Assembly (NCBI GenBank): GCA_011605725.1
Contig: JAAOZP010000004.1
Span: forward strand, 96,001-160,000
Direction: 5' to 3'
DNA: 64,000 nt
DNA from: Nitrososphaerota archaeon
GTDB lineage: Archaea; Thermoproteota; EX4484-205; JAAOZP01
Shown piece after piece: positions 46,238 through 57,826 of this stretch; within the stretch, counting starts at the first letter, position 1; every line of letters starts with the position of its first letter. The position numbers and the translations under genes were made by a program. A model generated the notes under the pieces. It did no database searches. It saw only the letters and a program-made list of their open reading frames with translations, and had not been told where the DNA came from.

Positions 46238-46347
46238 GCCGGGGTGGTCGAATCCGGTTCACAACAGGAAGGCTGAAAGGCGGTGGGCTGCAGAAGAGCT
46301 CTGTCGAAACCCACAGTATGCGGGTTCAAATCCCGCCCCCGGCTCCA
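46238..46347 (+). tRNA. trnC: tRNA-Cys(GCA) with two introns and encoded CCA
   Basis: Acceptor GCCGGGG/CCCCGGC, discriminator T, CCA; T-arm GCGGG-TTCAAAT-CCCGC; anticodon stem GTGGG/CCCAC with CT-GCA-G; 15-nt intron at 37/38 (46294-46308) and a ~15-18 nt insert in the D-loop. Confidence 0.88.
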
Positions 46348-53635: not shown

Positions 53636-54214
53636 ATGAGAGTAAAGGCTTCTAAGAAAGCCATAAGAGCATTAGGAGTGGCTGAAAGCTTCCGAAAGGA
53701 CTCGGCTAAGGCTCTACTAGCCGGAGTAGTCATGCGCAGCGACTTTATAATAGACGGTTTCGCCCTAAGCCGTACAACGATATCGGGTGATGACGCTACC
53801 GACTCAGTCATAGCTCTCTACAGTTCGCTGAACAGGAAGGACATTAACCTGATAATGATCGGGGGGACAGTCATAAGCATGTACAACATTGTTGACGTCA
53901 ACAGGGTTTTTGAGGAAACTGGGAGACCGGTTATAGCAGTAACCTACAGACCATCAGAGGGAATTGAAGACGCTATTAAGAAGCATTTCCCAAACAACTG
54001 GGAGAGAAAGCTTGAAGCCTACAGGAAGCTTGGCCCCAGGAGGGAGGTGACTTTGAAAAACGGCTTTAAAGTCTTCGTTAGAAACATTGGTATAGACGAT
54101 TATGATTCAAAACATGTTTTAAACAGGTTCACGTTCTTCGGGAGAATTCCTGAGCCGATTCGTGTTGCAAGGCTTCTGGCGAGAAGCCTTTTACCCTTGG
54201 AGACAAGACCTTAG
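53636..54214 (+). CDS. DUF99 / EndoV-like nuclease family
   Basis: LGVAESF, G.DATD, YNIVD, PEPIRVA. Confidence 0.85.
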   Translation: MRVKASKKAIRALGVAESFRKDSAKALLAGVVMRSDFIIDGFALSRTTISGDDATDSVIALYSSLNRKDINLIMIGGTVISMYNIVDVNRVFEETGRPVIAVTYRPSEGIEDAIKKHFPNNWERKLEAYRKLGPRREVTLKNGFKVFVRNIGIDDYDSKHVLNRFTFFGRIPEPIRVARLLARSLLPLETRP

Positions 54215-54285
54215 CATTCGCGTTGAAAAAGCTTTAAACACAGGTTTTCCAAGTCTCATAGCAGGGAGCAAAAAATATAAAACAG

Positions 54286-54633
54286 GTGTTTCTCAAAGCA
54301 ACCCTGATGATTGAAGCAGGGGCTCTCCGCGGAATAGTTGAGGGACCCAGGCTTGGAATGAAGAGCGTGAAGAAACACCAGTATCTAGCAAGGTTTGATG
54401 GGGTCACTGACAGGCGGGAGGCGGCTAGGCTCCTCTTAGGAAGAAAAGTAGTGTGTCAAGCTGGAAAAAGCAGGGTCTTCGGCAGGATTACTGGTCTACA
54501 CGGCAGAAGAGGGACGGTTAGAGTAAGGTTTAGAAAAGGGCTTCCTGAGCCTTCGAACGGTCTGCCCCTTATCCTAGTGGAGCCTAAACGCCGGCGTGAA
54601 ACCCAAGGATCCGGAGAGCCTGAAAAAAAGTAG
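54286..54633 (+). CDS. rpl35ae: 50S ribosomal protein L35Ae (eL33)
   Basis: GRITGLHGRRGTVRVRFRKGLP. Confidence 0.85.
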   Translation: MFLKATLMIEAGALRGIVEGPRLGMKSVKKHQYLARFDGVTDRREAARLLLGRKVVCQAGKSRVFGRITGLHGRRGTVRVRFRKGLPEPSNGLPLILVEPKRRRETQGSGEPEKK

Positions 54634-54682: not shown

Positions 54683-55351
54683 TTATGAAACTCTTCTTAA
54701 CGGGACTGTTAGGCTTAGCAAGCCGTTTACCGCGGAAACGTAGAACTCTGGGTCAACCTCTGAGACAAGGTCTCCTGCAACATCAATAACGTAAACCGTG
54801 TGAAGCCTGGAGTTCTTTATCTCCTCAAGACTGACTGGCGGATTCTTATAGTAAAGGTCGCAAAGGCTCTTTACCTCATGGATTTCCCCGCTCCCCCTAA
54901 ACCTCGGAGGCTTTGCGAGACACAGGGGTATTTGAAGAACGTAGTAGGGAGGGACCCCTAGGCCAAACTTGTCGACTAGAACACTGTACCTGGTTATTTT
55001 GCTGGCAACCCTAGCCCTGCAGTAGAGCTCAGGGTCTAAAGCGTTTTCAGGAGGCACGTATCCTGTTTCAACCTCAACAGCCAGAGTCCCGTCGCCCCTG
55101 GCAGCGTAAACATCGCAGACAAGCCCTCCTCCAAGGTCGTGTTCAACATCCACATCGTAGCCTTTCAGCATAAGGTGTTTAGCGCAGACAAGCTCCATCA
55201 CGGAATGGTTTATCTTGACAAGCCCCTTCCTGCTGAGCTCGACAAGCTTGTTCTTCAGGCTTTCAAGCCCATACTTAACATCCTGGTTTACGTTCCTCCC
55301 AATCCTGCTGATAAGGGTTTCAACGTCTTCTTCAAACTTGTTTCCAGGCAA
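54683..55351 (-). CDS. Conserved hypothetical protein, PD-(D/E)XK-like
   Basis: KINHSVMEL, CDVYA, VEVETG.VPP, ASKI.RYS. Confidence 0.7.
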   Translation of the reverse strand: MPGNKFEEDVETLISRIGRNVNQDVKYGLESLKNKLVELSRKGLVKINHSVMELVCAKHLMLKGYDVDVEHDLGGGLVCDVYAARGDGTLAVEVETGYVPPENALDPELYCRARVASKITRYSVLVDKFGLGVPPYYVLQIPLCLAKPPRFRGSGEIHEVKSLCDLYYKNPPVSLEEIKNSRLHTVYVIDVAGDLVSEVDPEFYVSAVNGLLSLTVPLRRVS

Positions 55352-55441
55352 CTTCTTTTAAACCTGTTTTCAACGGCTTTTAAAAATATTCAGCGCGAAA
55401 ATCAAGATTTTTAGAGCAGTAACTACAGAAGAACTTGCGAA

Positions 55442-55452
55442 ACCCTTTTCAA
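55442..55452 (+). promoter_or_regulatory. BRE/TATA-like promoter for the hairpin RNA
   Basis: gaaacccttttcaa about 25-30 nt upstream of the hairpin 5' end. Confidence 0.45.
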
Positions 55453-55474
55453 TTTTCGAGAAACCATATGTTTT

Positions 55475-55645
55475 AAGCCCGGCGCGGGAAGTAGGCTTGG
55501 GCGGGAAACGGCTGCAAAAGCCGGTTCCAGCAGCAGCCCCACCGGTTGCTGGGAGACAACATCAAACAGCAGCTTGGTGGAAGACTGCAGCTGGGAAAGG
55601 TGGAGCAGCCGTAGCTCGTTCAGGCTTAGACCCGGAGCCGGGCTT
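55475..55645 (+). ncRNA. Unassigned rod-shaped structured RNA (~170 nt)
   Basis: Nested helices: 55475-83/55637-45, 55485-88/55631-34, 55492-505/55615-28, 55508-15/55605-12, 55525-31/55590-96, 55533-36/55585-88, 55539-51/55567-80; many G-U pairs on the + strand. Confidence 0.75.
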
Positions 55646-55652
55646 CTTTTTT
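55644..55652 (+). terminator. Oligo-T terminator
   Basis: ttctttttt immediately after the closing stem. Confidence 0.55.
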
Positions 55653-55665
55653 ATGCGGGAACGTT

Positions 55666-55706
55666 TTAAAAAGGCGATATTCCCTTAGGCAGACTAATCA
55701 TCTCGT
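55666..55706 (-). pseudogene. Relic duplicate of the flxA 3' end
   Basis: Encodes EMISLPKGISPF*, versus EMLELPRGISPF* at 56007-56045. Confidence 0.75.
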
Positions 55707-55711
55707 CGCGC

Positions 55712-55930
55712 GCTAGGAGGGTTAGCGAAAAACATAGCTTAGAAGTCGAGTTCAGAATAGATACTGAATCGGGTTTCTTCATAACCTTCGACTCAACCGG
55801 GATGGGCGACGAGCAGTTAATCAACAAGGTCATGAAAAGAATTGATGCAATCGCTGAGGCAAGAAGGATGTTTCTAAGCGAGTGGATGATGAACAGGTTC
55901 CTAAAGGGTAAAGGAATAGAGGTTAAGTAA
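55712..55930 (+). pseudogene. 5'-truncated homolog of the putative immunity gene at 14351-15145
   Basis: ARRVSEKHSLEVEFRIDTESGFFITFDSTGMGDEQLINKVMKRIDAIAEARR aligns with AERISGKYGFEVKHYLKPHEDWDFFYSAFNSSGMSEDKLLEEIKKRADAVREAQR; no start codon for the homologous part. Confidence 0.75.
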
Positions 55931-56006
55931 GAAGCGCGAAGCTCCGCTAAAAAACAAATCCTAGCCACAGGTTTCCGTCGGGAATACTGAGAGACCATGC
56001 GCTTTA

Positions 56007-56828
56007 TCAGAATGGAGAGATGCCTCTGGGCAGTTCCAACATTTCGCTATATTTGAAAACCGGACCGTCTAGACAGATGTGCTTCCTTCCGAAGTGGCAG
56101 TGTCCACATTTACCCACTCCACACTTCATTTTGCTCTCTAGAGAGGCGTAAATATTCTCCTTAGAGTATCCTAGTTCAACGAGTTTTTTCAAGACGAACC
56201 GTATCATCACCGGCGGACCGCATGTGCAGACTACCGTATCAGCCCTATTAAGCTTAGGCTTATCTAGGATTGTTGTCACAACGCCGACGTTACCTTTCCA
56301 GTCTCCCTCGCCCACGTCGACGGTTAGATGGAGGTCAACCCCACGCCTAATCCATTCTTCAAACTCGTCTCTATACATGAGGAGCGATGGAGACCTAGCT
56401 CCGTAGCAAACAGCGATCTCCCCATAATTATTCTTGTTTTCAAGAAGGTGGAGGATTAACGACCTAAGAGGCGCGAGCCCTATGCCTCCTCCTACCAATA
56501 GGATGCTCCTCCCCTCCATCTCTTTAACCGGCCAACCTCTCCCGTAGGGGCCCCTTACACCAATTTCCTCACCCTCCGAAGCCTCGTGTATAGCGCTTGT
56601 AACACTGCCCATCCTCCTGATGCTGAACTGTAAACGATCCTTGTCGAAAGGAGACGAGCATATGGAGAACGGGGCTTCGCCAACCCCGTAGACGGTGAGC
56701 ATTGCGAACTGGCCTGGCGCAAAGCTTTCGAAAAGGTTTGGGCTCAGCGTAAACGTTTTAGTATCGGGAGTCTCATCTTTAATCCTGATTATCCTAACAG
56801 GCTTAGGAGCATACGGGTTTAACCCCAT
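56007..56828 (-). CDS. flxA: FAD/NAD-binding oxidoreductase (FlxA/AsrB/HydG family)
   Basis: PGQF, GEAPFS, RGPYGRG, GGGIGLAP, CGPP.M, MKCGVGKCGHC, CLDGPVF. Confidence 0.88.
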   Translation of the reverse strand: MGLNPYAPKPVRIIRIKDETPDTKTFTLSPNLFESFAPGQFAMLTVYGVGEAPFSICSSPFDKDRLQFSIRRMGSVTSAIHEASEGEEIGVRGPYGRGWPVKEMEGRSILLVGGGIGLAPLRSLILHLLENKNNYGEIAVCYGARSPSLLMYRDEFEEWIRRGVDLHLTVDVGEGDWKGNVGVVTTILDKPKLNRADTVVCTCGPPVMIRFVLKKLVELGYSKENIYASLESKMKCGVGKCGHCHFGRKHICLDGPVFKYSEMLELPRGISPF

Positions 56829-57826
56829 CGTTTTAAAACCTCCCTTATGTCTACGCCGGCTGGGCAGAGAGAGACGCATCTACCGCACCCGACGCAGCCG
56901 TAAGCGTTGAAAGCCATCGGAATCCTGCTGAGCTTATGGCAGAACCTGTGGCAAAACCTGTCGACCTTACTCGGCCTAGGGTCTAGGCCGCTCGCCATTC
57001 TTGTGAAAACTGGTGAGGCGCAAGTGTCCCACCCTTTCGCCCTCACGTAAACATTCTTCTCCAGATGATCCTCAGTGTCGAAACAGTAGCAGACTGGGCA
57101 GGCGAAAGAGCAGAGGCTGCACTCCACGCATTTCTGAGCCTCATTCTGGAAAAACTTTTCGTCAAGCGTTTCCTCAAGCCTAACCAAGCGTTCCCTCGCT
57201 ATTTCAATCCTGCTGCTCATCTCCTTCGTCAACCTGCGAGACAGTTCCTCATACTTCTCCAAATGTTGAGCACCAGCTTCTTCAAAGAGGCTTGCGAAAC
57301 CGTCTATGAGAATTTGACCCCTCCCGCTTCTAACCTCCACCAGAAGCCCCCCTGTTATCCGCGTAAGAGTAATGTCTTCACCCGAGCCTCTTACGGGACC
57401 TGTTTCGAAAACATTGCAGAAACATTCCTCCCTAGGCTTGGCGCATGAGAGGCTTATAACGGTAATGCTTCTCCTCCTGGACTCGTAAAGAGGATCCGGG
57501 TTCGGAGGCTTTAGCAGAATATTATCCAATACGCTTAGGGCTGACGCGTCGCAAGGCCTAACACCCAAGAGAACAGCTTCTGAGCCCAATGCAGGCTCGT
57601 GCAGAACCCCTGTCTTAGGATCATGCTTGAAAACTATCTCACGCTGAGGGAGGAAGAAACGTTTTGGAGGAAGCCTAGTGTTAGAATAGTCTAGAAAGGC
57701 TTCTCCAGCATGCTTAATAGTTTTAAAGTCGAAGTAGCCGTTCGCCTCAACGGGTGCAATAACGTTTCTGCTTGAAACAAGCCCGTTCAAGAGACGTTTG
57801 AAGCCGTCTTCACTTAGAAACAGCAT
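56819..57826 (-). CDS. flxB: Fe-S protein (FlxB/AsrA/HydB family)
   Basis: GVRPCD, ECFC, CVECSLC..CPVCYCF, CVGCGRC..CP. Confidence 0.85.
   Translation of the reverse strand: MLFLSEDGFKRLLNGLVSSRNVIAPVEANGYFDFKTIKHAGEAFLDYSNTRLPPKRFFLPQREIVFKHDPKTGVLHEPALGSEAVLLGVRPCDASALSVLDNILLKPPNPDPLYESRRRSITVISLSCAKPREECFCNVFETGPVRGSGEDITLTRITGGLLVEVRSGRGQILIDGFASLFEEAGAQHLEKYEELSRRLTKEMSSRIEIARERLVRLEETLDEKFFQNEAQKCVECSLCSFACPVCYCFDTEDHLEKNVYVRAKGWDTCASPVFTRMASGLDPRPSKVDRFCHRFCHKLSRIPMAFNAYGCVGCGRCVSLCPAGVDIREVLKRWG

Follow-up and report, generated by a model that had tools for sequence, protein, structure and literature searches.

What is encoded by the GC-rich intergenic stretch at 55475-55652, and does its product work with a partner encoded nearby? 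The stretch lies in the window (the whole 64,000-nucleotide segment of DNA that we analysed, part of contig C4 of a 2.23-Mb source genome in 20 contigs), and a sequence-only reading had taken it for a novel stand-alone RNA of 6S-like shape, possibly an RNA-polymerase decoy. Comparative sequence analysis indicates that the locus is a genuine gene, carried by Brockarchaeota of hot springs, whose product is a tightly folded non-coding RNA without a catalogued family. The first part of the earlier proposal holds: covarying structure, strand asymmetry, BRE/TATA and oligo-T signals of its own, a single copy and the lack of an Rfam family all point to a new stand-alone RNA. The strongest contextual signal is one that the earlier reading missed, the conserved head-to-head gene for a protein of PD-(D/E)xK fold, here called hyp222.

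Fold, boundaries and identity of the RNA

The + strand of 55475-55652 folds with a minimum free energy (MFE) of -107.6 kcal/mol, compared with -68.0 +/- 4.5 for 200 dinucleotide shuffles (z -8.8), none of which folds as stably; the minus strand reaches -81.4 with a z of -5.0 only. The end-to-end hairpin that had been claimed for these positions is therefore present, as is its 14-bp helix 55492-55505/55615-55628 with five G-U pairs, and the 15-nt apical loop is seen in the centroid structure. The purine-rich bubble placed in the middle of the rod (55516-55524/55597-55604) fared less well. A loop region does exist there, but it is not open: it contains a 3-bp helix (GCC/GGU) that is kept in relatives as GCC/GGC or CC/GG, and the bubble sequence varies within the genus. 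The GC content is 0.62 at the RNA and the spacers on either side are AT-rich. The covariance model (CM) R1 scores 166 bits on the + strand of the window RNA and 62 bits on the minus strand, and the source genome holds one copy.

The TATA-like box and U-tract that had been noted before and after the hairpin are both there (55446-55453, and TTCTTTTTT at 55644-55652). About 26 nt separate the centre of the box from the start of the closing helix, and a BRE and TATA box at such a distance are the canonical geometry of an archaeal promoter. Every one of the 18 Brockarchaeota variants has the BRE plus TATA block (GCGAAACCCTTTTCTATTTTC type) at the same distance, and homologues that have diverged in other lineages have textbook BRE/TATA boxes (e.g., GAAAAGTTTTATAAG) equally far away. 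At the other end, a terminator scan marks 55634-55646 plus the T tail. From these sequence signals, the RNA is made from the + strand, with an inferred transcription start about 26 nt after the BRE/TATA, and ends at the oligo-T (Table 1).

Table 1 Positions of the RNA, its signals and motifs, and the neighbouring gene (window coordinates, except for the G167 copies)
Feature	Position	Strand	Basis
Structured RNA, about 172 nt, single irregular rod	55475-55647	+	MFE, CM R1, pair conservation, single copy
Predicted archaeal promoter: BRE-like GCGAAAC (55437-55443) and T-rich TATA-like box TTTTCAAT (55446-55453)	55437-55457	+	Conserved spacing
Predicted terminator, an oligo-T run (TTCTTTTTT) that abuts the closing helix	55644-55652	+	T-runs in most lineages
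Basal helices P1 (GCCCGG) and P2 (GGG), 5' halves; partner 55631-55643	55477-55488	+	Covariation
Invariant core, 5' half: loop strand AAGUA, then GGCUU	55489-55498	+	24-sequence alignment
Apical motif GGGAGACAACAUCAAACAG, 15-nt loop and closing pairs	55551-55569	+	Near-invariant in genus
Invariant core, 3' half: CAGGCUUAGAC	55621-55631	+	Pairs with 55493-55498
hyp222, 222 aa, unnamed family, PD-(D/E)xK nuclease-like fold, likely candidate for RNA partner	54683-55351	-	Fold, neighbourhood
G167 copies of the RNA (loci L124, L151, L152)	C1:275498-275738, 729953-730068, 740165-740280, 1993911-1994029		

No known family accounts for this RNA. Searched against Rfam 15 at gathering scores, the whole window gave no match at the RNA and only tRNA elsewhere; at E<=10 the RNA region returned noise only, the single full-length match being a plant miRNA model, which scored 20.8 bits where its cut-off is 140. 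ARAGORN found no tRNA or tmRNA gene in the whole window, hence none at the RNA, and together with the Rfam models this agrees with the earlier observation that tRNA, SRP and RNase P signatures are absent. Archaeal RNase P RNA (RF00373, RF02357) and SRP RNA (RF01857) resemble the window RNA in being small, GC-rich, promoter-driven structured RNAs of Thermoproteota, and both act with proteins. Neither matches it: the RNase P models, type T included, give no match in the region at E<=10 and the canonical RNase P RNA of the genome lies at G000:C18:1149-1441 (195.6 bits), while Archaea_SRP gives no match in the region and the SRP RNA of the genome lies at C20:53614-53929 (141.9 bits). Neither this RNA nor the hyp222 protein turned up in searches of the literature. 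Elsewhere in the window, 46238-46344 (+) has an Rfam tRNA match of 42.3 bits over 107 nt, presumably an intron-containing archaeal tRNA, although ARAGORN reported none there.

Two other identities were considered and rejected. A coding reading (the 63-codon ORF 55497-55688) is broken by 1- and 2-nt indels among members of the genus. A MITE or other dispersed repeat is contradicted by the single copy in the 2.23-Mb genome, by one copy per genus genome and by the lack of target-site duplications, dispersed copies with such duplications having been looked for and not found. A distant genome, G167, is an exception in copy number, with three to four copies of the RNA.

Conservation of the RNA and its basal core

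BLASTN found the RNA in 13 of the 17 genomes of the GTDB genus, the source genome included, at 72-88% identity; a fourteenth (G001) has a 19-nt fragment at a contig end, and the RNA is absent from all 44 other relatives searched. Searching with CM R1 returned the same 13 genus genomes with one copy each, and no match in nine other genomes of the order. The assemblies of the three genus members that miss the RNA (G006, G009 and G015) either lack the hydG neighbourhood or hold only a 42% paralogue, so that absence is uninformative there. In an exact-motif scan of GTDB representatives the carriers were Candidatus Brockarchaeota, Thermoproteota or 'Nitrososphaerota' MAGs from hot springs, and a metagenome scan added five further variants and one contig identical to the window.

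Across the 18 distinct sequences from Brockarchaeota, standard pairs make up 97.0% of pair cells, a share that falls to 22-50% when partners are slid by 1-3 columns; six pairs change on both sides, and the covariation score is reached by 0 of 500 shuffles, although related genomes are not independent and such counts overstate the support. Most of the variation in these 18 variants passes through G-U intermediates. Because 201 G-U cells stand against 5 A-C cells, the + strand RNA appears to be the selected molecule; the complementary strand would pair only 77%. CM R1 likewise gives 145-195 bits on the + strand and 36-70 bits on the minus strand across carriers. The claim that selection acts on RNA rather than on DNA is thus borne out by two measures that agree, the G-U/A-C asymmetry and the CM strand difference.

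Homologue searches recovered conserved, covarying helices in Brockarchaeota and beyond. With filters off, R1 detected the RNA at 42-62 bits in all three loci reached via homologues of the hyp222 protein, each in other Thermoproteota (one named Candidatus Bathyarchaeaceae). In each locus RNA and gene lie on opposite strands; the RNA is upstream of the gene by about 110 nt in two loci and by about 300 nt in the third. Among further protein-first loci, the RNA is divergent and adjacent in 10 of 16 with R1 and in 11 of 16 counting the broader model R2. On these sequence matches the RNA family occurs in Brockarchaeota and other Thermoproteota, Bathyarchaeia included, with homologous RNAs spanning 112-239 nt.

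An alignment of 24 sequences from Brockarchaeota and other Thermoproteota identifies the constant parts as the P1 closing helix, a short P2, an internal loop and a GCUU/AGGC helix, with the family core consensus 5' RAGYWN-GCUU opposite 3' RGGC-UUAGAY. On the 5' side of this alignment A16, G17, G21 and C22 are invariant and T23 and T24 nearly so; on the 3' side GGCTT and A156 are invariant. The core duplex reads AGGCUU on both strands in the window, with G-U wobbles; 23 of 24 sequences retain a U-G wobble, flanked by G-C and C-G pairs that all 24 have. The helices around this fixed core covary: in the broad alignment A7 all 11 P1/P2 pairs change on both sides (one pair is A-U in 11 sequences, G-C in 10 and C-G in 2), as do 18 of 22 basal pairs (107 cells) in the broad alignment, where 92% of cells pair compared with 74% when shuffled and 20-61% when slid, and where 0 of 500 shuffles reach any of five measures. 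Compared by eye with consensus rules, K-turn, bulged-G (sarcin-ricin) and bulge-helix-bulge motifs did not fit the basal loop, each of them breaking invariant Watson-Crick pairs.

The second conserved part is the apex, with the genus consensus GGGAGAYAAYAUCAAACAG; GAUnnCAUCAAAC recurs at loci L068-L070, and a loop motif of AAACRGC type recurs in other subfamilies. The distal part is otherwise modular: Brockarchaeota have a single long stem there, G395 a tandem of two hairpins. The 235-nt member of that genome (L155:1501-1735; G395:C6:243569-243803) encloses the two hairpins in its basal clamp, and each hairpin carries a GCGAC(A/G)AAGAC bulge on its 3' side and an AAAACRG loop. Matches of the loop complement (CAUCAAACAGC) to its own genome are at chance level, with one 11-mer (itself) and six other 10-mers. 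AUCAAAC (AUCAACC in L070) matches the 5' end of archaeal 16S (CCGGUUGAUCC) in part, and imperfectly in Brockarchaeota, and this reading was rejected; the best RNA duplex with the 16S region is unremarkable at -14.4 kcal/mol, and we propose no target.

The divergent neighbour hyp222 and its link to the RNA

The hyp222 sequence has no match in Pfam, NCBIfam, PADLOC or PDB. Its family is nevertheless sizeable, with about 2,765 relatives in a 90%-identity database of 5.8 billion clusters and 242 clusters at 50% identity; the relatives are named from Brockarchaeota, Thermoproteota and Bathyarchaeota MAGs only, and the protein is present in 178 of 401 sampled Thermoproteota genomes. An AlphaFold2 model (pLDDT 96 with a 63-sequence alignment) matches 3dnx over residues 46-201 (Z 9.8, rmsd 2.3, 104 aligned), with further fold matches to XisH (2okf, Z 9.3), AF1548 (1y88, Z 9.0), NucS (2vld, Z 7.5), 2ph7 and Can2, and all Foldseek matches belong to the PD-(D/E)xK superfamily. 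E70, D80, E93 and K118 are invariant in the 63 sequences, H49, E95, R114, Y122 and F129 are nearly so, and a weak profile match to Cas4 (E 0.037) covers the catalytic strands. As modelled, hyp222 is a member of the PD-(D/E)xK superfamily by its alpha-beta-beta-beta-alpha-beta core and by its acidic residues and lysine at catalytic positions, and an active nuclease-type site is likely.

Prediction of a hyp222 homodimer gave an ipSAE of 0.72, with the best control at 0.00, a mark that 20 of 30 proteins with solved structures of two identical chains attain, compared with 1 of 23 that were solved as single chains. The runs share at least 92% of contacts, with a partner pLDDT of at least 88, and the predicted interface is two-fold symmetric (137-137, 138-138, 211-211) and uses the conserved GFVPP..ALDP and PPYY motifs. 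The dimer model supports self-binding of hyp222. Some homologues have unusual reading frames: one in G379 (L154:3820-4355) aligns in two pieces, suggesting a frameshift, and fusion or extension may explain the open frames around the matches in G388:C36 (453 aa) and G371:C1 (446 aa, interrupted by an in-frame TGA).

Gene order at the RNA is constant in Brockarchaeota, which form one lineage: divergent hyp222, the RNA, and the 3' end of convergent hydG. In the window hyp222 starts 123 nt from the RNA, head-to-head. An RNA-first R2 census of 151 Thermoproteota genomes (at least 90% complete; strict filters, so that weak members are missed) returned 12 carriers outside Brockarchaeota, in six families. 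All 12 encode hyp222, and in 10 of them its gene is divergent and about 80-340 nt from the RNA 5' end while other neighbours differ; the genomes counted are related, which makes these numbers look stronger than they are. Adjacency within 350 nt would arise by chance in well below 1 in 1000 per genome of 1.5-2 Mb, and it persists at a protein identity of about 50-60% while all other neighbours change.

There are departures from this layout. The G395 RNA lies 680 kb from the protein gene, RNA and gene are on different contigs in G161 and G291, and in G345 (L114) they are tail-to-tail. None of the copies in G167, a complete genome of 2.15 Mb, is near the nuclease-like gene. Three of these copies are co-directional with and upstream of genes for a cold-shock protein (csp, 64 nt), a dodecin-like protein (43 nt) and a PfpI/DJ-1-like protein (215 nt), and two are inverted, 10 kb apart. 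The G167 copies precede genes as a 5'-UTR leader would, but the downstream gene in Brockarchaeota is convergent and a leader was rejected as a general explanation. We also considered a gene for an HD-domain phosphohydrolase (262 aa, 71-82% identity among five loci; e.g., L068:3734-4522 and L070:5010-5777) as a possible further member of the unit. Only L068, L070, L090, L091 and L096 have it after hyp222, all from family f35 (G293, G323 and G167 among the genomes). The gene is absent at the window locus, and this role was rejected.

Several families have the protein with no RNA detected by R1 or R2 (f5 0/22, f18 0/8, f21 0/7 and f16 0/5); in these, the RNA may be too diverged for the model to recognise, or else the protein may need no RNA. 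Family f5 consists of AT-rich genomes of about 1.6 Mb, which are probably ammonia oxidisers. Two hyp222 homologues have folds of another kind beside them, which R1 and R2 do not detect: in G041 a 213-nt multi-branched GC-rich fold (L107:2176-2388, minus strand, -119 kcal/mol) lies tail-to-tail with the gene, and in G352 a 221-nt multi-branched GC-rich fold (L108:2215-2435, + strand, -119 kcal/mol) lies downstream on the same strand. Both are closed by 8-10-bp helices and have an AAACAGC-type loop motif in common with the window RNA. They may be a second RNA type tied to the hyp222 family, and their homology with the rod type is plausible.

Our preferred reading, held at about even confidence and based on gene neighbourhood and co-occurrence, is that the stand-alone RNA functions with hyp222 as one unit, in which the RNA would be a scaffold, a specificity element or a regulator of the nuclease, or may instead be its substrate or inhibitor. 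A fixed U-G wobble in an invariant helix beside a conserved asymmetric loop is a classical signature of a protein or tertiary contact, as in tRNA-Ala G3-U70. The basal module of the window RNA, an asymmetric purine-rich loop together with the AGGCUU/AGGCUU duplex and its fixed wobble, could accordingly serve as a platform for protein recognition. Co-inherited, predicted to be dimeric and of nuclease fold, hyp222 is the most economical candidate reader, most likely as a two-fold symmetric homodimer, which the near two-fold symmetry of the duplex would, speculatively, suit. The lineage-specific distal stem and its conserved loop would then carry a second contact. A bolder version, which we put forward tentatively and regard as rather improbable, is a vertically inherited RNA-dependent nuclease of TACK archaea that would have a restriction-enzyme fold and no relation to CRISPR, OMEGA or RNase P, and in which the basal module docks the protein and the distal loop picks a nucleic-acid target.

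Competing explanations, known systems and flanking DNA

The unlinked copies in G167, G395, G161 and G291, the wide occurrence of hyp222 where no rod-type RNA is detectable, and the position of the G167 copies upstream of csp, dodecin and PfpI-like genes would all suit an independent trans-acting or housekeeping RNA with some other partner, its adjacency to hyp222 being inherited synteny or a shared bidirectional promoter region. We consider this possible, though doubtful, given that the adjacency survives deep divergence far beyond chance and that every one of the 12 carriers outside Brockarchaeota has the protein.

The same head-to-head layout, with two promoters within the 123-nt spacer, could instead mark a regulatory companion, either an antitoxin-like decoy RNA that titrates or inhibits the nuclease or a transcription unit that controls the hyp222 promoter, and the intact predicted active site may need restraint by the cell. 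We think this unlikely. The RNA is tail-to-tail (L114) or distant in some lineages, and the family looks vertically inherited and single-copy, unlike addiction modules, with no PADLOC match. Type III toxin-antitoxin systems (ToxIN-like) pair tandem repeats with a co-directional endoribonuclease toxin, and the window locus has neither the repeats nor that orientation.

The RNA-polymerase decoy suggested by the sequence-only reading, which would imitate an open promoter and in this way sequester the RNA polymerase or TBP/TFB of archaea, fails on the parts of the RNA that selection has kept, and we regard it as very improbable. Bacterial 6S RNA (RF00013 and related) is likewise a stand-alone gene product of about 170-185 nt whose 5' and 3' ends pair into a rod, and the general outline, a rod near 170 nt in length interrupted by internal loops, is the sole feature in favour. 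No 6S model matches at E<=10. A large conserved bubble at the centre is missing: the loops in mid-rod are small, partly paired through the conserved 3-bp helix and variable in sequence, and selection falls on the base and the apex; the homologues range from 112 to 239 nt, some with two inner hairpins replacing the rod centre. The conserved nuclease-fold neighbour has no parallel in 6S biology, and the host here is archaeal; 6S RNA recognises sigma-70, a factor that archaea are not known to have.

A DNA-level element, whether a cruciform or inverted-repeat site for the neighbouring nuclease, a MITE or a bidirectional hydG terminator, is suggested by the restriction-endonuclease-like fold of the neighbour and by hairpins that end about 20-30 nt from the hydG stop codon in relatives, but is highly implausible against the 201 to 5 excess of G-U over A-C cells, a 100-bit CM advantage of the + strand, a dedicated promoter at fixed distance, a single copy without target-site duplications and a size and conservation beyond what archaeal terminators require.

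Among the closest parallels are HEARO/IscB omega-RNA, TnpB omega-RNA and TIGR-Tas, in which a structured RNA is likewise kept beside a nuclease-type gene in distant lineages, an arrangement that points to a unit of RNA and protein. Those guide RNAs are co-directional with or overlap RuvC/HNH-type genes, belong to multi-copy mobile elements and carry a variable guide. The window RNA differs in its divergent gene, its PD-(D/E)xK neighbour and its single, syntenic copy (13 genomes); no variable unpaired guide segment was found in it, its variable segments being base-paired, and the HEARO and omega-RNA models of Rfam have no match at the window RNA. Compared by description only, Tan1 (Thalassoarchaea ncRNA 1), a 229-nt abundant orphan structured ncRNA of Marine Group II (Hou et al. 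2016, PMC5069720), is likewise a structured ncRNA of uncultivated archaea without assigned function, and belongs to another phylum.

Apart from rRNA, tRNA, RNase P, SRP and guide sRNAs, we know of very few structured RNAs that archaeal classes share in conserved form. In this one, sequence, structure, promoter and gene neighbourhood are all kept in Brockarchaeota and in several further families of Thermoproteota. Should RNA and hyp222 act together, they would be a new RNA-protein enzyme or control circuit in archaea without cultured representatives; even without that partnership, this is a well-supported new RNA family that merits an Rfam entry, and its model lets annotators avoid spurious ORFs such as 55497-55688.

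The DNA around the RNA has features of its own. About 350 bp between the RNA and hydG (55653-56006) are lacking in relatives. On the minus strand the segment terminates with ...ISLPKGISPF*, a diverged form of ...LELPRGISPF*, the C-terminus of hydG (10/23 identical, E 6e-05), and because of this copy we take the ancestral RNA-hydG junction to have been kept and the hydG tail to have been duplicated or displaced. A purine-rich + strand frame is open at 55670-55930. Further out, the flanks at 53636-54633 and 56007-57826 encode an endonuclease dU (Endo_dU, E 8.5e-59), a ribosomal protein L35Ae-like gene product and the gamma and beta subunits of a sulfhydrogenase or anaerobic sulfite-reductase-like complex, in an order that is conserved across the genus.
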